A stretch of DNA of 64,000 nt from contig NC_083761.1 in the NCBI RefSeq assembly GCF_963514075.1, positions 49,925,777 to 49,989,776 on the forward strand, given 5' to 3'. The position numbers and the translations under genes were made by a program. Under the pieces are notes generated by a model, which had not been told where the DNA came from, searched no databases, and was given only the letters and a program-made list of their open reading frames with translations. This stretch comes from Conger conger. Lineage: Eukaryota. Below, one piece after another: positions 3,111 through 60,705 of the stretch; within the stretch, counting starts at the first letter, position 1, and every line of letters begins with the position of its first letter.

Positions 3111-6100
3111 GTGCAAAGGTTTTAGGCAGGTGTATTGTATATATTGAATATCAAATCAATATTTGGTGTGACCACCCTTTGCCTTCAAAACAGCATCAAT
3201 TCTTCTAGGTATACTTGCAGTTTTTAAAGGAACTTGGCAGGTAGGTTGTTCCAAACCTCTTGGAGAACTAGCCACAGTTCTTCTGTGGATTTAGGCAGCC
3301 TCAAATGCTTTGTGTAATCCCAGACAGACTCAATGACGTTGAGATCAGGGCTCTGTGGGGGCCATACCATCACTTCCAGGACTCCTTGTTCTTCTTTACG
3401 CTGAAGATAGTTCTCAATGACATTGGCTGTATGTTTGGGGTCGTTGTCCTGCTGCAGAATACATTTTGGGCCAATTAGATGCCTCCCTGATGGTATTGCA
3501 TGATGGTTAATATCTGCCTGTACTTCTCAGCATTGAGGAGACCATTCATTCTATTTGCAGAAATGCAGCCACAAACTTGCAAGGAACCTCCATCATGCCT
3601 CACTGTTGCCTGCAGACACTCAATCTTGTACCGCTCTCCAGCCCTTCGGCGAACAAACTGCTTTCTGCTACAGCCGAATATTTCACATTTTTCTGGACCT
3701 TTGTTTTCGTGCATAGTTGAGTCGCTTTGCCTTGTTTCCACGTCGGAAGTATGACTTTTTGGCTGCAATTCTTCCATGAAGACATTACATTAGATTACAT
3801 TATTGGCATTTGGCAGACGCTGTTATCCAGAGCGACGTACAACAAAGTGCATACCCATAACCAGGGATAAGTGTGCTGAAAGACCCTAGAGGGAAGTACA
3901 ATTTCAGTTGCTACCCGTACAACAAAGATAAGGACCAGGGCCTATCTTTTTTTTATTTTTATTTATTTATTTTTTTTGGGGGAGAGATTCTACAGTTCTG
4001 ACCTCAACGGGGAGTTTGTTCCATCACCGTGGAGCCAGAACAGACAGTAGTCGTGAGCGTGAGGTGGAGGCTCGTAGAGGGGGAGGTGCCAAGCGGCCTG
4101 TGGAGGCTGAACGAAGAGGTCTGGCAGGGGTGTAGGGTCTGATGATTGTTTGTAGGTAAGCTGGGGAAGACCCCTTAACAGCTTGGAAGGCTAGCACCAA
4201 TGTTTTGAATTTGATGCGAGCCATGACAGGCAGCCAGTCAAGGGAAGTAAATTGGGGTGACGTGTGAGTATTTGGGAAGGTTGAAGACCAGACGAGCTGC
4301 TGCATTCTGGCTAAGTTGGAAGGGTCTGATGGCGGACGCTGGGAGGCCAGCCAAGAGGGAATTGCAGTAGTCCAGGCGGGACAGAACCATCACTTGGACC
4401 AGGAGCTGGGTCGAGTAGGGGGTGAGAAAGGGGCGGATTCTCCGTATGTTGTATAGGAAGAACCTGCATGACCGGGTCACTGCCGCAATGTTCTCGGAAA
4501 GGGACAGTCTGCTGTCCATCACCACGCCGAGGTTCCTTGCACTGGGTGATGGCGTGAGTGTGGTATCCCCGAGGGAAATGAAGAGATCCAGATGGGGAGA
4601 GGTATTAGCAGGGATGAATATCATTTCAGTCTTACCTGGTTTGAGCTTTAGATGGTGGTTGTCCATCCAGCTCTGGATGTCACTCAGGCAAGCAGAGATA
4701 CGGGCAGACACCTGTGTATCAGATGGTAGGAATGAGATGAAGAGTTGGGTATCGTCCGCATAGCAGTGGTAGGATAGCCCATGTGCAGTGATCACAGGGC
4801 CAAGGGAACGAGTATAAAGAGAAAAAAGAAGCGGGCCTAGGACTGAGCCCCAGGGAACTCCTGTGGCAAGGGGCCGAGGTGTCGATACCGTACCAGCCCA
4901 GGCAACCTGGAAGGAGCGACCAGAGAGGTAGGACTCAATCCAGTCCAGGGCTGTGCCACAGATGCCCGTTGCTGACAGGGTGGACAGGAGGATGGAGTGA
5001 TCCACAGTGTCGAAGGCAGCAGAGAGAACTAGAAGAATGAGGACAGAGGAGAGGGAGGCTGCTCGTGCGGCATGGAGCGACTCACTGACGAAGAGGAGCG
5101 CGGTCTCTGTCGAGTGGCCCGATCTGAAGCAAGACTGATGGGGGTCTAGCAGGTTGTTGTTAGAAAAGAAAGAAGAAAGTTGAGTAGAGGCAGCTTGTTC
5201 TATGGTTTTAGAAAGAAAAGGAAGAAGAGATACCGGGCGGTAGTTCTGGATGATGGAGGGATCCAGAGTAGGCTTTTTTAGCAGCGGAGTGATGTGGGCC
5301 CTCTTGGAGGATGCTGGAAAACAGCCGGAAGACAGGGAGGAGTTGACAAGGGAGGTGACAAATGGGAGAATGTCAGGTGTGATAGTCTGGAGAAGAGAAG
5401 AGGGGATAGGGTCAAGGGCACAGGTTGTAGGGCGGTGGGAGAGGAGGAGTTGAGAAACATCTGAGTCTGTAAGGGGGGAGAAAGTGGAAAAGGAAGGGAT
5501 GGGCCTGGGGGGGGGGGGAAATGGCACAGTAAGGGAGGCGGTGGTTGTAAAGGATCTGCGGATGACTGTGACCTTCTCATCGAAAAAAATCAGCGAAGTC
5601 TTCAGTAGTGAAGGAGGACTGAGGCGGAGGAGGCGGTGCATTGAGGAGAGAGGAGAAAATGGAGAACAGTTTCCGGGGGTTAGAAGCGGAGTTCTGAATT
5701 TGCGTCTGATAGTATTTCGCTTTGGCGGCAGTGACAGCGGAAGAGAATACCGCCAGGAAAGACCACTTCTGATTAGACTTCTCCGCACAGTAGTTGGGTG
5801 TACCTGGGTCCCACTGGTTTCTGCCAATTCTGAGCTGATGGTACTGCTGGACATCTTCCGATTGCGAAGGGAAGTAAGCATGATGTGTCTTTCATCCAAG
5901 TTTCCTTGGCCAACCACTGGGTCTACGGTCCTCAACGTTGCCCATTTCTTTGTGCTTCTTCAACAGAGTTTGGACAGCACATCTGGAAACCCCTGTCTGC
6001 CTTGAAATTTCTGCCTGGGAGAGACCTTGCTGATGCAGCATAACTACCTTGAGTCTTGTTGCTGTGCTCAGTCTTGCCGCTGTGCTCAGTCTTGCCATGG

Positions 6101-13548: not shown

Positions 13549-16310
13549 CCAGGGGCCTCATTTATAAGCGTTGCGTAGGCACAAAAGAATGCGTACGCCA
13601 CTTTCTAAGCAAACTTTGGCATTTATAAAAAACGAACTTGACGGGAAAATGTGCGGTTCTCCACGGAAACTCTGACCCATGCGTACGCACGTTAACTGGA
13701 GAAATGAGAAACTGTGCCTTTAATGCTCGTGACGTAAGACCAGGAAAACGGGAAGTGAAACAGGATGTAAAAAGGTATAAAGATTTGCCGGGAGTTGTGG
13801 CTGGGTATGGCTGCTGTAAGGACGTGCGTCGTCCATGATATACTTATTAAAGTGTTGTATTGTTGAATCTCGCTATACGGGTTCTCTCCCTTCCTAAGTG
13901 CAACTCAACATTTGGCGACGAGAGAAGTCGAAAATGATATACGACAGATACCACTGTGTAAAATAAATCGAAATTGATTGTTGTTGATTGTACTCTTAAA
14001 GGGTTCTGATTTTCTGCATGTTTACCCTAGGACTCGGAACTATACTGTCCTCTCAGGTCCTCTTTGCACTTGTTTAATTTGCACTTCGTTGTACGTCGCT
14101 CTGGATAAGAGCGTCTGCTAAATGCCATGCAATGTAATGTAATGTAATGTAATGTAATGAAATATCACCTCTCACGTATCATATACGAAGAGTTAATTTG
14201 CAAAAACGTTTAAAAGCCTCTCTTACAACGAATAAACAAACAGCTGTTTGATTGATGCTCCCTGGAGTGCCCAAAAAATGATTTAGGATGATAAATATAA
14301 ACGGAGATGTTGTTGTAAAATAATCCCTCAAATATGTAGACGAATTGTTAAACAATACTTAATGTTATTAAATGTATTCTCATAAATAATATGGTGAACA
14401 GTCGGACAAATTGCGCTGCAAAGTGCAAATTTCGATTTATTTTACACAGTGGCATCTGTTGTATATCATTTTCGACTTCTCTCGTCGCCAAATGTTGTGT
14501 TGCACTTAGGAAGGGAGAGAACCCGTATAGCGAGATTCAACAACACAACACTTTAATAAGTATAACAGGGACGAAGCACGTCCTTACAGCAGCCATACCC
14601 AGCCACAACTCCCGGCAAATCTTTAAACCTTTTTACATCCTGTTTCACTTCCCGTTTTCCTGGTGTTACGTCACGAGCATTAAAGGCACAGTTTCTCATT
14701 TCTCCAGTTAATGTGCGTAGGCATGGGTCAGAGTTTCCGTGGAGGACCGCACATTTTCCCGTCAAGTTAGTTTTTTATAAATGCCAAAGTTTGCTTAGAA
14801 AGTGGCGTACGCATTCTTTTGTGCCTACGCAACGTTTATAAATGAGGCCCCAGGGGCCTCATTTATAAAACTGTGCTTAGGATTCACGTCAAAAGGTTGC
14901 GTAAGCATGAAACCTAGGACGTGCGTACGCAAAACAATATTCTTATTTATAAAACAGTGCATACGCACGTCCCACGCCAGTTTCCTTTATAAATCACAAT
15001 CAACTCTAAATGTGGTGCAACTTTGCCAGCTTCATGTCCCGCCCACAGTTGCCTATAAATAGGCAGTGAAACACCCCTAATGAATATGCATTTCACGAAG
15101 ACGACAATGGCAAACGCTGAAAAGAAGGCCAAGAAAGGGGATTTCAGCCATTTGATTGCCTCTGAAAAGCTACAGGTGTGGGAATTATCCTGATTGATTG
15201 TAAATGACGAACAGTTCTGCACAACGAATGTGATGACGATGATAATAATAATAATAATAATAGTAATACACGTTATTTGTCTAGCACCATTGAAAACACA
15301 GTTACAAAATTAAGAGATAAAACGAACAAAAATCCATAACAATAAGCACATTATAAAACATAATATATGAATATGATAACAATATATGAAACTATGCACT
15401 CGTATCTGCCCGACTGACGCATTGTAAACGGCATCAGTGCAGCGCAATTTGTCCGACTGTTCACCATATTATTTATGAGAATACATTTAATAACATGAAG
15501 TATTTTAACAATTCGTCTACATATTTGAGGGATTATTTTACAACAACATCTCCATTTATATTTATCATCCTAAATCATATTTTTTGGGCACTCCAGGGAG
15601 CATCAATCAAACAGCTGTTTGTTTATTCATTGTAAGAGAGGCTTTTATCCGTTTTTGCAAATTAACTCTTCACATATGATACGTGAGAAGTAATATTTCA
15701 TTACATTACATTACATTACATGGCATTTAGCAGACGCTCTTATCCAGAGCGACGTACAACAAAGTGCAAATTAAACACAAGAACAAGTGCAGAGGACCTG
15801 AGAGGACAGTATAGTTCTGAGTCCTAGTGTAAACATGCAGAAAATCAGAACCCTTTAAGAATACAATCAACAACAATCAATTTCGATTTATTTTACACAG
15901 TGGTATCTGTTGTGTATCATTTTCGACTTCTCTCGTCGCCAAATGTTGTGTTGCACTTAGGAAGGGAGAGAACCCGTATAGTGAGATTCAACAATACAAC
16001 ACTTTAATAAGTATAACAGGGACGAAGCACGTCCTTACAGCAGCCATACCCAGCCACAACTCCCGGCAAATCTTTATTATTATTACCTTTTTACATCCTG
16101 TTTCACTTCCCGTTTTCCTGGTCTTACGTCACGAGCATTAAAGGCACAGTTTCTCATTTCTACAGTTAATGTGCGTACGCATGGGTCAGAGTTTCCGTGG
16201 AGGACCGCACATTTTCCGGTCAAGTTAGTTTTTTATAAATGTCAAAGTTTGCTTAGAAAGTGGCGTACGCATTCTTTTGTGCCTACGCAACGTTTATAAA
16301 TGAGGCCCCA
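13549..16310. repeat. Composite palindromic repeat, possibly two adjacent non-autonomous DNA transposons. Unit U (13552-14420) reappears fully inverted at 15410-16310. The first ~440 bp of U are also inverted at 14420-14858. A SINE 3'-tail fragment is embedded in each copy. The remaining ~550 bp (14859-15410) is unique.
   Basis: Direct reading of the sequence shows that both halves begin aggggcctcatttataa and end ttataaatgaggcccc. They contain subterminal tttataaa and gcgtacgc motifs. ORFs 13638..13838(+) and 14553..14765(-) are the same repeat read in opposite orientations. Confidence 0.6.
15049..15175 (+). promoter_or_regulatory. TATA-box (ctataaatagg), followed about 50 bp later by ATG-initiated MANAEKKAKKGDFSHLIASEKLQ and a GT donor (CAG|gtgtgg), inside the unique part of the composite repeat.
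   Basis: TATA consensus at 15049-15060. The ATG at 15107 opens a 23-codon ORF ending at a donor-like site. No downstream exon could be identified. Confidence 0.2.
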
Positions 16311-16445: not shown

Positions 16446-16796
16446 CACATTATGTCAGATATCGCTATGCATGCCATGAAGTATAACATTGTTCATATTG
16501 TGCTATATTGCTAACAATTACATTAATACATTTTTGACCAAATGAAAAAAACTGCAGTTAATCAGGTTTGGCTCTTTATCATTTTCTTTGTCTGGATTTG
16601 TTTCATTATCTTCCTGATGTTTAGTTTTAGTAGGCAAGTATCCACACTTTCACCAATTAGGAGCATATTGATTCAACTCAGGCTTTTTCTTTTTTTGACC
16701 ATTTAACAATTTACTTATTTTTATGCAGTTGTTTGCAATATAGCACAATATGAACTTATCCTACATGGCATGCATAGCTATATCTGACATAATGTG
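16446..16796. mobile_element. MITE-like element with ~35-bp terminal inverted repeats.
   Basis: cacattatgtcagatatcgctatgcatgccatg at the left end matches catggcatgcatagctatatctgacataatgtg at the right end. The inner portion also shows an inverted pair: ttgtgctatattgc / gcaatatagcacaa. Confidence 0.5.
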
Positions 16797-17808: not shown

Positions 17809-18246
17809 ATACAGTGCAGTCCATAAGTATTTGGACATTGGCATCTTTTGTTTTCACTCTATACCCCATCAAACAAACAGTTGAAATGAATTCACATGTG
17901 GTTAAGGTGCAGATTTTTGTTTTTTTTACATCCATATTGGGTTTACAAAATGTTTGCATCTTGTGGTGAACCCTCTGAGGTTATGCTGGCGTAGTCTCTT
18001 GATGGTCATCTTTGACACATCTACGCCTACATCTTGGGGAGTGTTCTTGATCTGTTGAAGTTACAAGGGGATTTTTCTTCACCATTTGAAGGATTCTTCT
18101 GTCTTTCACTACACTGGTCTTCCATGGTGTACCAGGTTGTTTGCCATTTCTGAGCTCACCAGTATGTTCTTGCCTCTTAGCAATGTATCAAACCATTGAT
18201 TGATTCTGACACACCTACTGTCCAAATACTTATGGACTGCACTGTA
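17809..18246. mobile_element. Short (~440 bp) Tc1 family-B deletion derivative.
   Basis: Bounded by tacagtgcagtccataagtatttggaca ... tgtccaaatacttatggactgcactgta. A further 3'-end fragment of the same family lies at ~18345-18430. Confidence 0.7.
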
Positions 18247-24000: not shown

Positions 24001-25433
24001 ACACTGCTGTTATATGAGTTTTGAAAATGTAATAAATATGACAAAAAAGCAGCTCAAGTATCCGATTTCAATAAGTAATACAATTTTTATATTGCATTCA
24101 CGATTTTTAGAATGTTTTGAAGGATATACAAAGCTAAAAGCCAATTAGCCGTCACTGGGATGGACCGCAAGTCCACTGCGAAGCACTGTTCTTCTATTCA
24201 ATAGACTGTTAATTAAATTAGTAATTGTCTAAATTGAGCTATCTACCATATTACTGCCTTCACAGATAACAAGAATTGGCTTCCACTAAGCTATAAGCCA
24301 ATTTAAGACAAAAGCTTTTGACTCAAATTGGCTTATAGGTTAGTGAGAAACAAAAGATGCATTTGGAAAAATGAACACTTCATTCCTACTTTACTTTCAT
24401 CTTATCCTGCAGGGGCTTGAGTCTGAGAGGCTGGGAGACAGTCAGCAAGCGAGTGAGCAAGAACAAGTAAAAGTTTTGGAAAATTTAAACGGCTTTATTG
24501 CAGATTTTGAATATTTCTCCTAGAGTTTGTTTGTACACCTAATTTGTAACTGCTTTTAAAGAATTCATACCATGGGTTTACATGTATTGTGTTCCTTGCT
24601 TCTATAAAGATTTGTTAAAATTTAGCGTTTACCATTCATTGATATGTAACAATGCTGCACGGAACACATCACCAATAAATTAAAGTTAAAATGATGCCCT
24701 TATGTTGTGTTTCGGTTAGTGGTTTTTTCCACTGGAATGCATACTATTTGGAATAAGGGGTATACCTGCATACAGTATATAGCATTACAATACATGACTT
24801 TGCTGCTGAACAAAACTATACAGGTACCTCTTCAGAAGGATCACAAGCCTTCCTAAACAAACCATTCTAGTAGTGTGATTACCGTTTTATTCCAGATAAC
24901 AGTATATTGTTTGTCTCTTCCATTTCCATAACCAGGTTAGCTAGTGTATTTCATGCTAAGTAAATGAGTTCAAATGATGAACCTTCTCTACTTTCTGAGT
25001 CCAAATTCCTGTCTTTTGTTTTCTGTAAAGAGGATGGCTGAGGGGGGGGGTGGGGGTACAGCCACTAGGATTCCATGTTGGATCCTCTGAACACCCTACC
25101 CTCTACAGCTGGCTGAGTGATCGGAGTGAAGGACAGCAACAAACTGAGGACAGAATGAGAGAATGGGTTAGTATGATTCACACACACTTGCAGGACACAA
25201 CAGTACAGTAACACTGACACAGAGAGAAAGGTAACAGCACATACACACGCCGAGTAGACCATACCGTTTCTCTAAACGGGGCGAAGAGAGAAAAAGAGGG
25301 GATAGGCAGAAATTCACGGACATAAAACACATGGCAAGAGCAGAGAAAGGACATGCCCTCCCTCACCTTGACTGTTGCCCACGGTCTCTCTCACCCACCG
25401 GCTCTCTCTCCCCTATCCCTTTAGTCCTTCCTG

Positions 25434-25783
25434 CTAGCTGTGGGACTGGGGGGCTATGCCAGAACAATCGGACACCAGCAGCCCCACCCCGGTGTTCCCG
25501 CTGACAAACACGCTAGGTCCAGACACCATGTTGCCCAGGGAGATGGAGCTGCTGGACGCCGTGGTGGTGGTGATGGGGCTCGGGGTGGTGTGGGGGCTGG
25601 TGTGTGTGCCCATGTGGCCTTGCAGTTGGGTGGGGGTCTTGCAGTGCACCCCGCAGAGTTGACATAACAGGACACCTCCAGGCCCGGTTCCCCCAAATCC
25701 CCCTCTCTGACCCGCACTCTCCTTCCACTCCTGACCGTGGTGCTTCTGTGCGTGGACACGCAGGTATGTAAGAGTAGTAAAGC
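25434..25783 (-). CDS. MAZ: MAZ terminal coding exon encoding (S)FTTLTYLRVHAQKHHG...LLCQLCGVHCKTPTQLQGHMGTH... and ending SHS, with a stop at 25434.
   Basis: Matches human GFTTAAYLRIHAVKDHG...ILCKLCSVHCKTPAQLAGHMQTH. The acceptor is tccccag|GC. ORF is 25434..25808. Confidence 0.8.
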
Positions 25784-26686
25784 CTGGGGAGAAGGAGGGG
25801 AGAGGCACGGTTATACAGCATGCAATGCAGACTCAATGAGAGTGCGTACGGCACACAGGAGGACTAGATGCTATACAGTATACTGAATGAGCAAAGCCAC
25901 ACAGAGGCTCGGAGCTCTCTCGACTCTAGCTCTCTGCTTAAAAATAGGGTAAGCAGTTTAATATTTTGTCGTACAAATATTTATTTTCCTACATGGCTTC
26001 ACACCTGTTCTTCCATGAATGAGGAAACTTGGTTGCGGATTGCAACCAGGGTGGTATCGGCATGGCCATTGGCTAAACCTGGCCAGACAAATATCGGTTA
26101 CTAATGCCAGCGCACAATTTCCATATTCTGCATCCCTAAAAACGGCCTCAATTGCAATGTACAGTAGTAGTAGTGTAACCGGTGTAAAAGCGACATAAAG
26201 TACACACTGTTAATATCTGAACCATGAATTTTCAAGCCTGTTACAGGTGTGTGTAAGTTGCTGAAGTTGTTACATACAAAACATTGCCTGCTATGTACTA
26301 CACAGTTGCCGTTGGTAGAAGTAAACTAGTTTGATGAAACCATGCAGGAAATAAACTGTGGATGTTCATGTTTGACTGCGGGATTATATTGGAAAGAAGT
26401 TACTGATGAATTTTTCTGCACTTTGAAACCACCTTGGTACTAGGTTGAACTAGTGCAAATATTTAGAAAACGCACATTTCAGCAAAACTGTGAGGATGGA
26501 CTGATACTACTCCGGGTAATTAGAAATATACCTTAGAATTAGAAATGTACTTTTTGAGGGAACTGCCCCTTTTAGTTGAATCAGAACTGCTGAGCTAAAA
26601 TAATGTAACTATTATGCAACTCATTTTAAGTGGGCTGAAACAAAAGTGAGTAAATGTTTGAAATAGATGATAGAAATGGAACTCAC

Positions 26687-30867: not shown

Positions 30868-31099
30868 TAAGCTGTGGGGTGGCCTGTAGCGTAGTGGTTA
30901 AGGTAAATTACTGGGACACCCAAGGTTGGTGGTTCCAATCCCGGTGTAGCCACAATAAGATCCGCACAGCCGTTGGGCCCTTGAGCAAGGCCCTTAACCC
31001 TGCATTGCTCTAGGGGAGGATTGTCTCCTGCTTAGTCTAATCAACTGTATGTCGCTCTGGATAAGAGCGTCTGCCAAATGCCAATAATGTAATGTAATA
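30868..31099 (+). mobile_element. Complete tRNA-derived SINE with a LINE-shared 3' tail (HpaI/SmaI-like family).
   Basis: The tRNA-like head (ggcctgtagcgtagtggttaaggt ... ggttccaatcccgg) has A/B boxes. The tail is gtcgctctggataagagcgtctgccaaatgcc(aatgt)n. The same tail is found at 3781-3850 (the LINE), 14040-14160 and 15700-15760. Confidence 0.75.
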
Positions 31100-33826: not shown

Positions 33827-34153
33827 CCTGTGAAATGTGAATATAAACCGTACCTGAGGCACTTCATCAACACAAGAGCATTACATTTGTTATAACATTG
33901 AAACTGAAATCATGCCCATGTATTCAGCAACGGTGCAGTGCAATTTGTGTGTGTTCTTTTTGTTTTTTATTTTTTACCTCTCGCCTTATTGTCTCTGCAG
34001 GGTTTGTGCTGAAGGAAGATTGCAGAATGTTGTGTTCTTGAGTGCACACAGCACCAATAAAGCACATTAAATGGAAACATTAATGAAGCATAATTGCTTC
34101 TTAAGCAGCTGGGTTTGGATTTACATTTTGACATCTGAAAAGTGAAAACGCAC

Positions 34154-34542
34154 CTGTACCGTTGCCCCAGCGATTACTACAGCAGCAGGAGGAGGAGGTG
34201 GGCCAGCCATGGTAACATTAGCTGTGGTGACTGACATGGCAACCACTTCACCTTCTTGATTTCCTAGAGCAGATGGATGAGGAACTGACATGGCAGGAGG
34301 GGGAAGAGGAGGAGGAACAGAGAGATGGAGTAAGGAGAGAGGTACAGTCTGTCTCTCCACTCGTCCGACTGCTGCTGCCGCTCCTTCCTTCATTCCTGCC
34401 TCCCTCTCTCTGGCAGCTTTGTCCTTCATACGGATTCCTGTGTGGACTGACTGGTGGCGCCGCAGGTTGTAGCTGTTCTTGAACTGCTTGTTACAAAGGG
34501 GGCAGATATGGGCAGCTCGAGCAGGCCGAGACACTGGCTTTG
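34154..34542 (-). CDS. MAZ: MAZ exon carrying the first C2H2 zinc finger (HICPLCNKQFKNSYNLRRHQSVHTG) and a Pro/Ala-rich linker.
   Basis: Matches human YICALCAKEFKNGYNLRRHEAIHTG followed by ...MVPLSLLSVPQL. ORF is 34121..34534. The acceptor is ctcag|CA and the donor is ACAG|gtgcgt. Confidence 0.85.
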
Positions 34543-38974: not shown

Positions 38975-40875
38975 TACAATGGAGGAAATAAGTATTGAAC
39001 ACATCAACATTTTGTCCAGTAAATGTATTTCCAATGAGCCTATTCAAGTGAAATTTGCACCAGACTTTGGTATTCACTCAAAAAATCCAGACAAAAAAAT
39101 CGAAACATTGAAGTCCATATGTAAATAAAGTTATGTGTAATGAAGTGGAATGAAACAGGAAAAAAGTATTGAACACACTAAGAAAAACAGCAAGGAAAGG
39201 CAAGGAACCAGCTGAAAACCATAACTAATTAGGAGGCAACTCTACCTCCAATCTGTGCTAATTAATGTCAGCTGGGTTGGAATATCCATCCATCCATCCA
39301 TTATCTTAACCCGCTTATCCTGAACAGGGTCGCAGGGGGGCTGGAGCCTATCCCAGCATACATTGGGCGAAAGGCAGGAATACACCCTGGACAGGTCGCC
39401 AGTCCATCGCAGGGCACACACACCATTCACTCACACACTCATACCTATGGGCAATTTAGACTCTCCAATCAGTCTAACCTGCATGTCTTTGGACTGTGGG
39501 AGGAAACCGGAGTACCCGGAGGAAACCCACGCAGACACGGGGAGAACATGCAAACTCCGCCCGGGATTCAAACCCAGGACCTCCTTGCTGTGAGGTGGCA
39601 GTACTACCCACTGCACCATCCGTGCCGCCTTGGGTTAGAATATATTGATGAATTTTTTTTTTTTTGTCACCAAGGTGCCACACAAGAAACATCTAATGAT
39701 GGGTAAAAGTAAAGTGCTCTCTTGAGACCTTCGCAACCAGATTGTTGCAAAACATGAAAATGGAATTGGCTACAGACGTAATTTCACAACTTCTGAATCT
39801 TCCAGTAAGCACCATTGGGGGCATTATCCGTAAGTGGAAGCAACATCACTCCACCATCAACCGGCCACGCACAGGAGCTCCTCGCAAGATTTCTGATCAG
39901 GGAGTCAGAAGGATACTTAGAAGAGTAGCCAAAGAGCCAAGGACCACTCCAGAAAGACTTGGAGGCAGCAGGTACAACTGTGACAGAAAGGACAGTAGGC
40001 AATGCACTCCACCGCCATGGCCTCTGTGCACGCTCAGCCCGCAAGACTCCACTACTGAAAAAAAGACATGTTGAAGCTCGTTTAAAGTTTGCCAAACAAC
40101 ATCTGGACAAGCCAGTGAACTACTGGGAGCATGTACTCTGGTCAGATGAGACGAAAATTGAACTTTTTGGCGGTCACACAACACACCATGTTTGGAGGAC
40201 AAATGGCACTGCACATCACCCGAATAACACTATACCAACAGTGAAGTTTGGAGGTGGAAGTATCATAGCGCGGGGCTGTTTCTCTTCTCGTGGTACTGGC
40301 AGACTTCATATCATTGAAGGAACAAGGATGAGACGTGGGTGGACCTTCCAGCAGGACAACGATCCAAAGCATACAGCAAAGGAAACTCGCAATTGGTTTC
40401 AGAGAAAGAAAATCAACTTGTTGGAATGGCCCAGTCAATCACCTGACTTAAACCCAACTGAAAATTTTTGGAAGCATGTGAAGATCCAGATTCACAAGAG
40501 GGCCCCCTGCAATCTTAAAGATTTAAAGACAATCTGTGTAGAGGAATGGGCCAAAATCACACCTGAATACTGCGGGCGATTAGTTACTTCACACAGAAAG
40601 CGCATTGAAACTGTCATTACAAACAAAGGCTTCTCCATTGAGTATTGAATTAATTTCAGTTAGTGTGTTCAATACTTTTTTCCTATGTCATTCCACTTTA
40701 TTACACATAACTTTATTTACATATGGACTTTAATGTTTAGATTTTTTGTCTGGACTTCTTGAGTTAATTCCACAGTCTGGTGCAAATTTCACTTGAATGG
40801 CCTCATTGGAAATACATTTACTGGACAAAATGTTGATGTACATGTTGATGTTCAATACTTATTTCCCCCATTGTA
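38975..40875 (+). mobile_element. Tc1-like transposon with long (~200 bp) terminal inverted repeats and a near-complete but frameshifted transposase. It lies in CDIPT intron 5 and itself carries a SINE insertion.
   Basis: Left end tacaatggaggaaataagtattgaacac... matches right end ...gttcaatacttatttcccccattgta, inverted over ~200 bp. ORFs 39742..40074 and 39959..40648 encode a Tc1 transposase ([35 protein letters not shown]) containing a frameshift and a deletion. Confidence 0.8.
39284..39629 (-). mobile_element. tRNA-derived SINE of the widespread teleost family (sense begins GGCGGCACGGATGGTGCAGTGGG and ends with a (GGAT)n tail), inserted into the Tc1 element with a ~13-bp target-site duplication.
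   Basis: The reverse complement reads ggcggcacggatggtgcagtgggtagtactgccacctcacagcaaggaggtcctgggtt...tggatggatggatgg. The flanks gctgggttggaatat | ...| ttgggttagaatat form the TSD. Confidence 0.8.
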
Positions 40876-48117: not shown

Positions 48118-48300
48118 CCTCTGCTCCAGCAGCGCCCGGCGGATGGACACCCTCTGCTCCAGGTCCTTGGCCTCGCGCTCGTGCTGAGAGTCGGTGTGGA
48201 TCTTGATCTTGCTCTGGTAGGCGTTCAGCAGCTCCAGCTCCTGCTGCAGCTGCATGCGCAGCACCTGGTACTCGGCCTCCTGAGACTCATCCAATCGCAG
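48118..48300 (-). CDS. TAOK2: TAOK2 exon encoding [61 protein letters not shown].
   Basis: Matches human [61 protein letters not shown]. The acceptor is cctcag|CTG and the donor is AGG|gtgagg. Length is 183 nt. Confidence 0.85.
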
Positions 48301-48486
48301 CTGAGGGAGAAGATGGGAGGGGCACATCCCTCAGCTGGTGGTGTGGTATCTGTGTAAAGTTTGGTTTCACATACACTATATCTGACCTTTCTCGGAATCT
48401 GAGCAGTCATGCTTACTATTCAGTATTGGTCAAACCCACCTCTTACTCTCTTTGTGATGTTTTATAAAACTAGTTCTTAATAGTAA

Positions 48487-49915
48487 CAATACTACAGTGC
48501 CCTCCATAATGTTTGGGACAAAGACCCATTTGTCTCGATTTGCCAACTTTAAGATTTTGAATAACACAATTATCACATGGTTAAAGTGCACATTCTTAGA
48601 TTTTATTGAAGGAAATTTTTATACGCTGTATAAATTACAGCGGTGTTTATACATAAATTTCTCAGGCGTGTTGAATTGCCTATTTAATGCACATACGAGA
48701 GCTCTTGGCACCTAGTCTTTCCACTCGTCTTTCGATCACCTTTGGAAACTATTATTGCCATTTTACATGAGGAGGGGTCACTCCGCTCTGCACCCTGGTT
48801 CACTCCTGAACTGAGGGTACAGAAATCTGCACGGCACATTCTGGAATGGCGGCTGCTGGGCTTCTAAATTTCAAACTGGCCGATAGAGCGCACCAAAGAG
48901 GTACGATCAACCTTCTTGTCATATGGTCCAGCCTCAGGCCCAGATAGCAAGCGACACCGGACCGGTTCTTGGACCTCGCTATCTGGGACTCCTGTTACCA
49001 TCGCTAACACTTTTTCTGCTGTCAGTTTTGGTTTCATCATTGTACTTCTGGCAAGATGACGGTCAGTTTGACAATTTGATCTTATCTTGTGTGCGCAAGA
49101 TAAAAAATATAACTTTTCGGGACTTTGGGGGCTCCGTAGATTTGTGTAGCAAACACAATAACAAAGATGATGTTTTCCATCCTCGGCTGGCCAGTATCAT
49201 GGGACGTACCAAAACATTCGCACCCATGGGTTATTCCCCCTCCCAATTGTGCTTGACATCGGTTGCATGAAATCTTGCCGATCTAAAAACGCTAAATGCA
49301 TTACAAATTGAAATCCCATTGTATTTAGCATATAGCTATGTATTTAAATCATGAAACATACACTTTGAACCCAGACTTCCAAGCGATGTAGTTTGCTTAA
49401 ATTTAGCTTTCAACGCTCTATTTAATAGGGAGCAGTATACAGGCGGTATCATTGAATGATACCGCCTGTATACTGCTCCCTATTAAATAGAGCGTTGAAA
49501 GCTAAATTTAAGCAAACTACATCGCTTGGAAGTCTGGGTTCAAAGTGTATGTTTCACAGAATAACTTTATCATAAAGAGAATTCATCATGTCATCAGCTG
49601 TGGAGGTCTCTGTCAGTCTCTTTGCGATGAGTAAGCTCACCAGTGCTCCCTTTCTTTTTTACAATGTTCCTAACAGTTAATTTTGGTAAGCCAAATGTCT
49701 GGCCGATGTCTAACCATTTTATTCTCGTTTCTCAGCCTCGTAATGCCCTCTCACTTTCATTGGCACAGTTTTGGTCCTCATGTTGATAAACAACAAAAAA
49801 AGTTTCCAAAGGTGATCAAAAGACATAGGAAAGACTAGGGGCTGAGAGCTCTCTTATACCTGCATAACAAAGTAATTACAAACATGTGTCCCAAAGATTA
49901 TGGTACCCTGAAATG
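48487..49915. mobile_element. Non-autonomous Tc1-like element (family D) with long inverted arms and a central perfect palindrome, in a TAOK2 intron.
   Basis: Left terminus tacagtgccctccataatgtttgggacaaagaccc and a diverged inverted copy ...gtgtcccaaagattatggtaccctg near 49885-49915. Internal inverted segments agtctttccactcgtctttcgatcacctttggaaac (48700-48730) match gtttccaaaggtgatc...ggaaagactagg (49800-49830). Confidence 0.5.
49352..49557. repeat. Near-perfect 206-bp palindrome with ~100-bp arms and a 4-nt centre.
   Basis: Arm tgaaacatacactttgaacccagacttccaagcgatgtagtttgcttaaatttagctttcaacgctctatttaatagggagcagtatacaggcggtatcatt is followed by its exact reverse complement from 49457 on. No mismatches were seen by eye. 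Confidence 0.8.
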
Positions 49916-51077
49916 TACAATACCACAGTAATTTCTAAATGATGAAACCAAAATGTATAAAACTATCCTTTAATAAAATCTGAGAATGTGCACTTTAACC
50001 CCATCCTAATTGTATGATTCATAACATAACATAAGGTAATGGCAAGAACAGGCCATTCAGCCCAGCAATGCTCACCTTTGCCTACCCCTAAGTGTACCTA
50101 CTGCCTAAATTGCCTAAAAGCTAAATAGAATCTAACACCGTATCAAGCCTGGTCTTGAAAACCCCCAGTGTTTCTGCCTCCATTACATGCACTGGCAAGC
50201 TATTCCACATATTGACTACTCGCTGTGTGAAAAAATACTTCCTAATATCTGTACGGAATTTCTCAATTTGAGTCCTCTCGTGCCAATTTCCATTTGGGTC
50301 CTCTCGTTCTGCTAACCGAACTCAACCTGAAGAAATCCCTATACTTCCCTTTGTTAATCCCTTTAATGATTTTTAAAGCCTCAATCAAATCCCCCCTAAG
50401 CCTCCTTTTACTTAGTTTACAGAGATTAAGCATCCTTCCATCCTTTTATACATGGAATGAATCTGGTTGCCCTTCTCTGAACCTTTTCTAATGCCACTAT
50501 GTCCTTCTTATAGTGTGATCCCCAGAACCGTACAGTGTGGTCTAACAAGAGTATTGTATTGTATAAGGTGAGTATAACTTCCTCAGATTTATAATCAATA
50601 CTCCTGGCTATGTATCTAGGTCATTTATGTAAATGAGGAAGAGCAATGGCCCCAGCACTGATCCCTCCCCTGGATAAGGCCCCCTCCTACTACTTTCTGT
50701 GTCCTTTCTCGTAGTCAATTCTGAACCCACTTAGAAATGGCTCCTACAATTCCTACCTTTCTCATTTTGATAATGAGCTTGTCATGTGGTACCTTATCGA
50801 ATGCTTTTTGGAAATCTAGGAATACACTATCATAAAACCAGCTATCATCAAAACACTTGATTGCTTCATCAAAGAATGCCAAAAGGTTTGTCAGGCATGA
50901 ACTACCCTTTAAATGTTATTGTTTTCAATAAATAATTCCAGTTTGTCCCTAATTATAGATTCCAGCAACTAGTGTTGCACCTATGAATGGCTAAACAGCA
51001 TCCTAAAAATGTGGCTGCCTCTGCAACTTAGTGGTTACTGAAGCTCTCCAGTTTCAGGAACAACCATGGGAATATTA

Positions 51078-51362
<285 letters not shown>

Positions 51363-54300
51363 CTAGAAAGAAAGAGAGGCATTCAGACTTTTTTTTTCCT
51401 CCCCTTAACGGTGTATGTGCAGAAACAATGTAGGAAAGCAGATCCAGCAAGGCACTCCACAGCTAAAATGAGTGGGGGAAAGTAAACCATCCCTTACTTA
51501 CAGTTTGTCGAAAGTCAAAATCTGTCAGCAAGGGTTAATATTTAAAATGAAACCTAAAAGGGGCGAAGAGCTGGCAGGTGAGGCTTACACAGAAACTTTA
51601 ACAGTACTGACAAGGCAGATTCTACTCCAATATTTCAGAGCTAAAGTTTGGTTCTGACCAATAGGTTGTGCACAGAATACATGAGACTAATTAGGAATAA
51701 TTAATCAGACCACAGTTTAGTACATTCCTACGGCAAGCACCAAGATGGCTTCTCATTGACCTTAAACAACTACCAACCACATTGTGTGTGCATATGATTC
51801 AAGCTATACACCACTTATCGTGCCTCTGTTGATGTCTTCAGCTTCCACAGACTGTTCAGATTATGTTTTTAAAGATTAACACTTCTGAAAGGTCTGAGTC
51901 AGGTCGATGCTAAGACCAGGTTGACACAGAAGGAGGTGTTCGAGGAAACGGGGTGTAGAGAAAATATGGAGTACAGCAGCACAATCAGACCGAGCAGTTA
52001 TCCCCTTTAAGTGCAGCAACAGTTGTGTGATAATGTATAAGCAACATATCTGAAGTTGGGACATTAATCTTCCAACTAGAAAGCAAGAATGTCAAAGAGC
52101 ACAGAAATATATATATTTTTAAGTACAATGAGAGAGAAGACAAAAAGAGAGAGGTGGAGCAATGATTGGGGAGGGGGGGGATGTATGTACAATGTGCTGG
52201 TTAGAACCAAATACTGGAGGCAGGGAGAATCTGATTGGTCCCTACAGTGTTCTAACATTTCTTAGCACTAGACTTTCTTCCTCATCTGTATAGCAAAGTC
52301 TTGAAGAAATAAATACATCAAAATGATAATGAAAGATAAAGAAATGGCAAATGAAGAAATATAAATTTAAAAATGACCAAGACAAACAAACTAAAATGAT
52401 TTAACAAAAGAACATTTATTTCTGAGTTGAGGAAATTTGTAAGTATAATGAAATATTGCATATACTTACACACTCACACAAATGATGAAATGCAGACAAA
52501 ATGGCCACATGCACACACACACAAACAGTGCAGCATTAATCATATAAATACTGCACACATCACATAGATAAATGTTTCTATATTAAAAACAACACAAATA
52601 AATGACATTAAAACAAGACATATAATAGAACTTATAAAAATAACAATAACATGAACTTATAAAGTACATTCACAGTGAACAGAAACTGATGAACAGCAAA
52701 CTGCTTAGGGATTCTAGTGCAGACTCGATTCAAGCGAATGCACTCTGCTTTTACAAGATGGACAGGCATAAATTCTTGCACATCTGGGCACTGTAATACA
52801 TACTTCAAGTGAAAAAGTACACACAATTCAGTCCCCACATCTTAGTAGCAATTCTGCACTCTTATATGCACTATTTAACATGAATACATAATACATCACT
52901 TCAAAACACAATAAAGTTTTAAATCTGCCTCCCTTCTGCCTCTCTCCAATTTCCAATGCTGTGTTTGATCACCACACACTTGTTGATACTTAGTGAAATT
53001 ACTATGCTGGTCTTTTCCTTTTCTGAACTCATTTTTCATTGAATTGTTTTCTATGGCTTTGTGAGGACTTTGAAAGAGTGCAGGATTCCTACAGAAGAAT
53101 AAAAACAAGAAAACTTTTCCCCCTGTACAGAACATAACAGGAACATAAAAAAAAAAAAAAACTATACTCTCCATTTTCCTAAAGTGTTCATAGTCTTAAG
53201 TAATGTCTCTCAAAGGCAAGTATTTAAGAAGTGAAAGACAGTGCAAACTTCACAAATTTAATAGTTTCTTCATTGGCTATGCTTCTTTGTACTACCTCAA
53301 ATTCTATTTTTGGTTTATTTTATTGCTTTCAATTATGGCTTCAATTACTTCAATACACATTCAATTCCTATAAAGATTGTCTTTATGTTTTGCATATTTT
53401 GTATATATATAAAATTAATCATCAATATTTAGATCTTTTAAAAGAAGAAATGAAACTATTTGAATAAATAGCTGAAATAGAGAATCATTCCTAAATCTTA
53501 CTGATATGGAGGTATTCCTTGCATATTTGAGAAACTGTATAAACAAGCCAACTCTCCAAGTGAACAGTTTAAAACAGACAACTTATATTACTTCATTAAA
53601 AATTGCACAACAAAACAAACACTTGTTTACATGGTAAAACTTGAAAATATGAATTATTGCCAATGGGGCAATAAGAGAAATGTTTATCTTCTAAAAAACT
53701 TAAACACATTTTGACGAATCATCTTCCTCCTCTCCCCTTCTTTGGTGTCCCAATTACCCTCAAGACAAATTACCCTTATGATAATGATCTCCGACAGATA
53801 ATTATCATAATCATATGATTCTGTACTGGCTAATAATGCATATTTACTGAAAAATGTATTCTCATACTTTTACTTGCCGAATCCCATCAACTTTTCCCCC
53901 TAATACCTGCAAATCAAACACTTATGACAACAAAGGGATGCTCTCCAATTTCAGTGTTACCTAAGCATCCCTCCAAAAAGCTGAACATTGAAGACAGAAT
54001 TTTAAAAAGGCCCACTGAAAAACAAGACCACTATATGGTGACCATTACATTAAGATACTGAGCACCAAAAGAAACTTGACACCGAATGTTTTTGGGGAAA
54101 TTAAATGGAAGGAATCTGCATAATGATGAAATATGTTCAGCCTGACTGTATTATGCAATAATGTAACATTCTTGACTGAGCACGATACCCTTGCATGTCT
54201 CAGACCATTCCATAAGCACCACATCACCTCAACAGAAGACTGGGCACAGATGAGGCCATTTAGTCTGGAGTGAAATCAAATGCCAGGGCTTATTAGGAGA

Positions 54301-60423: not shown

Positions 60424-60516
60424 GTAACCGCAGTGGGAGACAGACAGGCACGCAGGCAGGCATGCAGGCAGGCAGGCAGGCACGCAGGCAGGCAGGCAGG
60501 CAGGCAGGCAGGCACG

Positions 60517-60548
<32 letters not shown>

Positions 60549-60705
60549 CACGCAGGCACGCAGGCACGCAGGCACGCAGGCACGCAGAGCAACCGCACTG
60601 GGAGACACAGGCATAGTAACCGCACTGGGAGACACAGGCAGAGTAACCGCACTGGGAGACACACACAGGCAGAGTAACCGCACTGGGAGACACAGGCAGG
60701 CAGAC
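60424..60705. repeat. Compound minisatellite inside a TAOK2 intron, made of (GCAGGCAG)n with GCACGCAG variants followed by four copies of a ~31-bp unit gagtaaccgcactgggagacacaggca.
   Basis: Tandem periodicity is visible directly. It generates repeat-driven ORFs on both strands (60433..60807+, 60401..60664-). Confidence 0.85.

Follow-up and report, generated by a model that had tools for sequence, protein, structure and literature searches.

Perfect palindromes can be made in a single step, and the closest described cases come from DNA repair and replication. At a DNA break, a resected end can anneal on a short inverted microhomology; DNA polymerase delta then copies 2 to ~150 nt, and the displaced strand is captured by the other end via non-homologous end joining, with 0-5 bp of microhomology (PMC11724301). 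Models of synthesis-dependent microhomology-mediated end joining are related to this (PMC5728401, PMC2943611). Template switches during replication also make perfect hairpins in one event, without a pre-existing repeat, and the examples include hairpins of 28 and up to 83 nt (PMC10710096). Here we describe a 205-bp perfect palindrome in the fish Conger conger. It lies in a stretch of 64,000 nucleotides (NCBI RefSeq assembly GCF_963514075.1, contig NC_083761.1, positions 49,925,777 to 49,989,776 of the forward strand), which we call the window and number from its first letter. By alignment, the palindrome is in an intron of TAOK2, between two fragments of Tc1-family transposons. We give about an even chance (roughly 0.5) to the explanation that the palindrome is a real, young, local inverted duplication that was made in one step, either by fold-back synthesis at a break or by a template switch during replication. 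This kind of event is already known, as are the mechanisms that generate it, and near-perfect palindromes longer than 200 bp are no rarity in a finished vertebrate genome: the human genome has 718 of them without a spacer (PMC7999016). This palindrome is noteworthy because it is long and perfect and lies 8 bp from a transposon breakpoint.

The palindrome and its surroundings, from left to right, are:

48495-48775, plus strand: left Tc1-family 5'-end fragment, with a canonical terminus (TA followed by CAGTGCCCTCCATAATGTTTGGGACA), running inward through the leader to the ATG
48776-49351, no strand assigned: non-Tc1 stretch of 576 bp, relatively CpG-rich, without similarity on either strand to the Tc1 copy L003 (see below)
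49352-49453, no strand assigned: left arm, the exact reverse complement of 49455-49556; putative original copy, continuous with the 576-bp non-Tc1 stretch
49454, no strand assigned: centre base G, the sole unpaired base in the base-by-base expansion
49455-49556, no strand assigned: right arm, putatively the newly synthesised inverted copy; its outer border is 8 bp from the end of Tc1 homology
49557-49564, no strand assigned: junction 8-mer and candidate filler, CAGAATAA on the plus strand, between the palindrome and the Tc1 breakpoint
49565-50094, minus strand: right Tc1-family 5' fragment, with the terminal inverted repeat, the leader, and about the first 70 transposase codons; truncated at 49565

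An inverted-repeat finder and base-by-base expansion agree that the arms are 49352-49453 and 49455-49556, with 102 nt each and 102/102 positions paired, so the palindrome spans 205 bp (49352-49556) and its centre is one unpaired base, the G at 49454. A preliminary description of this DNA, made from the letters alone, had reported a perfect palindrome of 206 bp with a 4-nt centre. Base by base, there is indeed no mismatch, but the size and the centre were off, and the end had been placed one base too far: directly outside the palindrome, the C at 49557 does not pair with the A at 49351. By chance, about 1e-55 palindromes this good would be expected in 64 kb. Beyond the borders, complementarity falls abruptly to the chance level (16/60 positions), so the palindrome has sharp borders and stands by itself, rather than being what is left of a larger inverted repeat that has decayed around it. 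No pre-existing quasi-palindrome was seen to reach past the arms. As a single strand, the palindrome is predicted to fold into one uninterrupted hairpin with a 3-nt loop (T-G-A), at -126 kcal/mol as DNA (z = -31) or -189 kcal/mol as RNA (z = -37). It is moderately AT-rich (62%). Among the window's inverted repeats with a short spacer, it is by far the largest, followed by a perfect pair of 26 nt and a pair of 31 nt at 90%. These smaller palindromes are at 2453-2514 (one perfect 26-nt inverted repeat with a 10-nt spacer) and at 24284-24345 (62 bp, spacer-less, 90% complementarity), respectively.

The window is teleost DNA. The position of the palindrome in TAOK2, which had been proposed from the start, holds up. 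The closest genome that we obtained is that of the halosaur Aldrovandia affinis, and the exons of its orthologous locus (L004) align to the window at 82-96%. The two exons that flank the palindrome, at ~48181-48308 and 51120-51379, are 91-92% identical to exons of a Pkinase-containing gene model from A. affinis, and minus-strand open reading frames (ORFs) of the window match TAO2 kinases (the protein matches are named TAO2). Since the exons at ~51379-51120 and ~48308-48181 bracket it, homology places the palindrome within an intron of TAOK2 in an elopomorph fish. The order and orientation of the flanking exons match those of the A. affinis ortholog. The intron with the palindrome is ~2.8 kb here versus 1,119 bp in A. 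affinis, where it contains neither Tc1 sequence nor anything like the palindrome and cannot be aligned except for short stretches near both ends. This comparison shows that the inserted material in the TAOK2 intron is lineage-specific. The A. affinis intron was rejected as an outgroup for the palindrome, because, unlike the exons, it does not align. Similarly, the Logan contig with the best match to TAOK2 (L001) was rejected as an independent assembly: it is from another species, with ~75% identity, and stops short of the intron.

To find relatives of the Tc1 fragments, 45 residues of the right flank that are free of stops were used as the query of an exhaustive HMMER search, which led to two proteins of the same Tc1 family, P0124 and P0127. 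Their genomic contigs, L003 and L002 respectively, are from ENA assembly ERZ26222911. L003 is a near-complete Tc1 copy of ~1.54 kb with a recognisable transposase gene, including motifs of the DDE region, and L002 has a PF01498 ORF downstream. With blastn, the right flank (minus strand, ~50020 to 49565) is 73% identical to L002 (E = 1e-78) and 69% identical to L003 (E = 7e-56); at the protein level, tblastn gives matches to P0127 (E = 3e-17) and P0124 (E = 2e-12). As side observations, ERZ26222911 is a metagenome with low-coverage fish contigs that bear this Tc1 family (L002 and L003), and L002 is an internally deleted copy that is missing ~240 bp (866-1104 of L003).

The palindrome's right border lies beside a break in this homology. 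Similarity to the two independent relatives, L002 and L003, stops at the identical base, 49565. On the minus strand, both relatives run from AAG into AAAAATCCCC (or, at greater length, AAAAATCCCCAAACACC), while the window departs after the AAG: it continues with TTATTCTG and then, at the edge of the palindrome, TGAAACAT (at greater length, AAG, TTATTCTG, TGAAACATAC). The Tc1 breakpoint (49564/49565) is thus 8 bp from the palindrome's right border (49556/49557). If the breakpoint were at random in the ~1-kb interior, this proximity would have a chance of ~0.03. This argues that the two are connected: either a single rearrangement is behind both the truncated Tc1 copy and the palindrome, or the assembly has an error there. 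A deletion at the right border is suggested by the end of Tc1 homology 8 bp away. A templated origin for the 8-bp filler was considered and rejected, because there is only a 7-mer match, 155 bp away, which is within chance by our own estimate. At the palindrome's borders, we found no target-site duplication: the only direct repeat is a 2-bp CA, and none of 3 to 11 bp was seen.

The arms themselves do not resemble the transposon. When each arm and the stretch to the left were aligned as DNA to L003, on both strands, there was no similarity (z from -0.6 to 2.1), while the right flank, as a positive control, had z = 41.6. With scores of about 0 next to this control, the interior 49564-48776 (the 8 bp, the palindrome, and the 576 bp) is not derived from Tc1 and is foreign to it. 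The palindrome had been described as embedded in the middle of a Tc1-like element. It does lie between two inverted Tc1 arms, but it is not Tc1 sequence, and it is not concentric with them (the centres are at 49454 versus ~49295).

The palindrome also seems to be much younger than its neighbours. The arms differ at 0/102 positions (a divergence of under 2.9% at 95%). In 244 shared columns, the two Tc1 fragments have 23 and 21 private substitutions (~9% each). Arms as old as these fragments would differ at ~18 sites, and the probability of no differences would be ~1e-9. This is a strong indication that the palindrome is much younger than the neighbouring Tc1 fragments, or is being homogenised, or is artefactual; it is not a dated estimate, because some of the private changes in the Tc1 fragments may predate insertion. 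The palindrome had been suspected of being young, and, relative to its surroundings, the comparison (0/102 against ~9%) agrees.

How might such a structure have arisen? We infer that a DNA break or a stalled replication fork could have arisen beside a Tc1 fragment that was already old. The 3' end of the left-hand sequence would have folded back on a few bases of inverted microhomology at the present centre, and would have been extended by ~100 nt with its own strand or the complementary strand as the template. The new strand, which would be the right arm, would then have been joined to the other broken end, inside the Tc1 fragment, leaving the 8 bp of filler and deleting the intervening DNA. 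Of the three explanations that were offered in the preliminary description, its "recent palindromisation", which corresponds to this scenario, is the best supported. Tc1 homology that ends 8 bp from the border is what a junction of deletion plus fold-back predicts. The perfect, adjacent inverted copies with almost no spacer, the sharp borders, the absence of a target-site duplication, and the border's proximity to a deletion-type breakpoint with filler all match fold-back synthesis at a break. We weakly favour the left arm as the original and the right arm as the copy, because of CpG composition and because of parsimony (the junction then coincides with the break in Tc1). Specifically, the number of CpGs in an arm (3 per 102 nt) fits the left stretch better than the right Tc1 part, with a likelihood ratio of ~6.

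Compared to described fold-backs at breaks (PMC11724301; PMC5728401 and PMC2943611 for the related end-joining models), the locus is similar in that the inverted copy adjoins its template and the adjoining sequence appears to be deleted. Also, one of the borders would be silent, and the other would be a junction at which microhomology is minimal or absent and some filler bases are present. The 102-nt copy falls inside the range for fold-backs at breaks (2 to ~150 bp) and beyond the 28-83 nt of the template-switch examples. The described cases differ in that they are mostly under 14-34 bp and come from reporter assays in yeast or flies, while this one is 102 nt, is in the germline genome of a fish, and is an event that we deduce; also, the centre here leaves essentially no spacer. 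The hairpins from template switches (PMC10710096; PMC8794818) are similar in that perfect arms are made in one step without a prior repeat, in an intronic, transcribed setting. They differ in size: those cited span 28-83 nt and have stems of 30-55 bp. Furthermore, template-switch mutations replace a similar length of sequence, and they predict no large deletion or homology breakpoint nearby.

Several points weigh against a one-step inverted duplication. Most fold-backs that are associated with breaks are under 14 bp, so 102 nt would be in the rare upper tail (PMC11724301), and 102 nt exceeds the cited examples of template switches as well. Because the A. affinis intron cannot be aligned and lacks the whole region, the ancestral state, and hence the event, is not observed directly. 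The identity of the original arm depends on composition that is weakly informative (the likelihood ratio of ~6) and on parsimony. A one-step duplication also does not explain the origin of the 576-bp stretch, nor its second breakpoint, with the left Tc1 fragment, at ~48775. Finally, polishing of the consensus could have partly inflated the identity between near-identical arms.

The perfection of the arms and the nearby breakpoint are also what an error in the library or the assembly might produce. The palindrome could come from an inverted chimera that formed through amplification, ligation, or fold-back in end repair, or else from sequence that was mis-joined locally in this repeat-rich intron, in which case the real genome would have one arm only, and possibly other sequence at the Tc1 breakpoint. 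We consider this unlikely, but it deserves to be taken seriously. The palindrome abuts a homology breakpoint within a repeated element, and assemblies tend to mis-join at repeats; the arms are exactly 100% identical; and exact look-ups of the window's ORFs turned up no independent assembly or read set that confirms the palindrome. Palindromic chimeras are known from whole-genome amplification (PMC6218980) and also from long-read libraries (PMC12870357). The long-read foldbacks resemble our palindrome in being strictly palindromic, with little or nothing between the halves. However, they are at the scale of reads, spanning whole reads symmetrically around the midpoint, they are rare, at ~0.6% of Oxford Nanopore (ONT) reads of genomic DNA and ~0 of HiFi reads, and they do not recur (PMC12870357). 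Arms of 102 nt within collinear unique sequence would instead need two precise switch points. Also, unique sequence continues on both sides, the exons are collinear with the A. affinis ortholog, the window has no Ns, and the rest of the 64 kb, in which no palindrome is comparable, shows no sign of a systematic problem. The preliminary description had raised an "assembly artefact of a foldback read", and the usual geometry of such reads is a poor fit (PMC12870357); it is a smaller chimeric molecule that entered the assembly at low coverage, or a local mis-join at a repeat, to which we give some, limited, credence.

A biological alternative is that a small palindromic mobile element, such as a foldback-type miniature inverted-repeat transposable element (MITE) whose halves are perfect inverted copies, was inserted here. 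In favour of this, the palindrome is discrete and sharply bounded, debris from DNA transposons is abundant in the window (including a Tc1-type MITE at 17811-18245), and a 2-bp direct repeat, CA, flanks the palindrome. Some DNA transposon superfamilies make 2-bp duplications. But chance alone would give a 2-bp match once in 16 times, and there is no TA, TTAA, 3-bp, or 8-bp duplication. The termini (TGAAACAT and onward) are unlike those of the local Tc1 family or its binding repeats, with no Tc1 similarity on either strand. There is no second copy in the 64-kb window, JGI metagenome contigs, GTDB genomes, or IMG/VR (there is little fish DNA in these collections), the palindrome's ORFs have no exact match among 15 billion proteins (a collection that also holds little fish DNA), and the patterns of the terminal inverted repeats and of the arms had no match in public collections or the literature. 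MITEs usually have an unpaired internal region and imperfect arms, and an insertion would leave it unexplained why Tc1 homology fails to resume on the other side. Without a target-site duplication, other copies in the window or the collections searched, or transposon-like termini, the "hairpin-forming MITE core" of the preliminary description is disfavoured, and we view a mobile element as improbable. Even more improbable, in our view, is that the palindrome is old and is kept perfect by gene conversion between the arms or by selection, for instance for a hairpin RNA. Conversion between arms is established for large palindromes, and this one would be transcribed inside TAOK2, with a predicted RNA stem that is extremely stable. 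On the other hand, no family in Rfam 15 reaches its gathering threshold on the palindrome (the best is MIR9746, with 54.9 bits versus 79), and the sub-threshold matches scatter over unrelated microRNA families on both strands, as they would for any long hairpin. A microRNA precursor also looks different from a perfect 102-bp stem with a 3-nt loop: its stem is ~35 bp long, and its loop has 10 nt or more (PMC10710096). The A. affinis ortholog lacks the region, and long, perfect palindromes without a spacer are the least stable class (PMC7999016).

If the palindrome is indeed a one-step duplication, it would be a clean natural case in which a single error of repair or replication made a long perfect hairpin in a transcribed region. 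It would be larger than the template-switch events that have so far been linked to the birth of new microRNA genes, and it would be tied to the edge of a broken transposon. A bolder form of this idea, which we find doubtful, is that a very recent germline fold-back at a decaying Tc1 copy made a newborn hairpin-RNA (endo-siRNA) locus and a fragile site that is prone to form cruciforms. If so, this would be a natural, one-step birth of a hairpin gene in a vertebrate, tied to transposon-associated breakage, and at the extreme of size. Within the TAOK2 pre-mRNA, we infer that the palindrome would give a perfect double-stranded RNA stem of 102 bp, which would plausibly be a substrate for RNA editing or dicing. 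In DNA, no class is more prone to form hairpins or cruciforms, to break, and to suffer deletions than long perfect palindromes without a spacer (PMC7999016). By analogy, the palindrome would be expected to be a fragile, deletion-prone site. The palindromic AT-rich repeats of humans (PATRRs) are comparable: PATRR17 is ~190 bp, PATRR11 is ~450 bp, and PATRR22 is ~600 bp (PMC1851657, PMC4940405). Like them, this is a near-perfect, spacer-less palindrome (~200 bp, near the size of PATRR17) with a predicted cruciform or hairpin; it differs in that it is less AT-rich (62%) and has no sequence relationship to them. The palindrome, if real, is predicted to be fragile and not to persist for long, so that the locus would lend itself to studies, in a non-model fish, of how palindromes turn over (as deletion polymorphism) and of possible small-RNA production. 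If the palindrome is an artefact, the assembly has a local error at this place in a gene's intron. Either way, current understanding is unchanged.

The sequence around the interior is Tc1/mariner, with a TA-flanked CAGTG terminus and homology to Tc1 transposases. The terminus of the left fragment (TA then CAGTG, at 48493/48495) is well preserved, while the outermost 45 bp of the right fragment are badly decayed and unrecognisable. The two 5' ends face outward and are ~1.6 kb apart. The fragments had been seen as the inverted arms of a single non-autonomous element. They are inverted, but both are 5' ends, they are 68% identical, and each is 68-73% identical to L002 and L003, so copies from a different genome are as close to them as they are to each other. 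They might be the ends of one old non-autonomous element, or, given this divergence, they could be two separate insertions. The arrangement is like that of non-autonomous Tc1/mariner elements and MITEs in that two outward-facing Tc1 ends, with a TA-CAGTG terminus, enclose DNA that does not encode transposase. It is unlike them in that both ends are 5', with as much divergence between the two as between either and unrelated copies, and in that the palindrome lacks Tc1 sequence, a TA duplication, and further copies (in the window and in the collections that were searched). The ratio of observed to expected CpGs is 0.74 for the left fragment versus 0.21 for the right, which hinted at a difference in age; we rejected this because the numbers of private changes (23 and 21) are nearly equal. 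Partial Tc1 copies elsewhere in the window (~33.4, 54.8, and 55.3 kb) were rejected as rulers because they come from other subfamilies and, being truncated, end short of the region in question.

We also considered other origins for the arms and the 576-bp stretch. A segment of the arms that could be read as transposase ("KPL..RL.FA..W") was rejected: in Smith-Waterman alignments to P0135, our ruler for the family, p was 0.31 and 0.62. Reading the 576-bp stretch as DDE remnants ("FNL", "GGG", "SPDLNPIE-like") was rejected as well, as it has no Pfam match and z is about 0 against L003. A tblastn search with a Tc1 ORF from the window gave only noise, so it did not support transposase remnants in the flanks or arms either, and a frameshift-stitched translation of the flanks had no match in a word-indexed protein search. 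The DDE catalytic domain was not found in the interior 49564-48776, which has no similarity to the DDE-bearing gene of L003 and no match in Pfam. The interior also has no match elsewhere in the window or in the loci L001-L004, and no tRNA or threshold-level Rfam match. As there were no matches, mitochondrial DNA, a tRNA, or a known RNA was rejected as the source of the foreign stretch. The ratio of observed to expected CpGs is 0.71 in the 576-bp stretch and 0.81 in one arm, compared to 0.21 in the right Tc1 fragment and 0.25 in the rest of the intron. The 576-bp stretch holds an ORF of 115 amino acids (48923-49270, plus strand) without a Pfam match.

Other features of the window are minor. Downstream of TAOK2, its neighbour on the minus strand is a gene that resembles C2H2 zinc-finger genes: the minus-strand ORFs at 34121-34534 and 25434-25808 are similar to exons of such genes (the first ORF matches zf-C2H2, 5e-06). 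Inside the TAOK2 region, at 60441-60699, 18 tandem copies of CAGGCAGG are followed by four copies of a 27-bp unit, and these arrays yield long, spurious "PACL"-repeat ORFs on both strands.

Besides the fragments in the TAOK2 intron, the window has several mobile elements. The Tc1-type non-autonomous element at 17811-18245 is 435 bp long (437 bp, 17810-18246, with one flanking TA per side). Its terminal inverted repeats are perfect 27-bp copies (beginning with CAGTGCAGTCCATAAGTATTTGGACA), or 29 nt if the flanking TA is counted; the perfect ends suggest that it is a young MITE of a different Tc1 subfamily. At 39742-40648 (plus strand), two overlapping ORFs encode a fairly intact Tc1 transposase from another subfamily, which ends in ...NKGFSIEY and matches HTH_Tnp_Tc3_2 (8e-16) and DDE_3 (2e-10) from Pfam. 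A 565-amino-acid ORF at 4238-5935 (minus strand) matches RVT_1 (1e-32), and its N-terminus has a sub-threshold match to HTH_Tnp_Tc3_2 (27.4 versus 31.5 bits), which suggests a LINE that was inserted into, or fused with, a Tc1 remnant. UnaL2 elements, from the 3' ends of LINEs, score above the Rfam gathering threshold at 14078-14131 (plus strand), 15717-15770 (minus strand), and 31034-31087 (plus strand); the first two are in opposite orientations, 1.6 kb apart. Last, a ~350-bp unit at 16446-16796, which is MITE- or foldback-like, has long inverted arms (41 nt at 93%, and 36 nt at 89%) on either side of a ~190-bp spacer.

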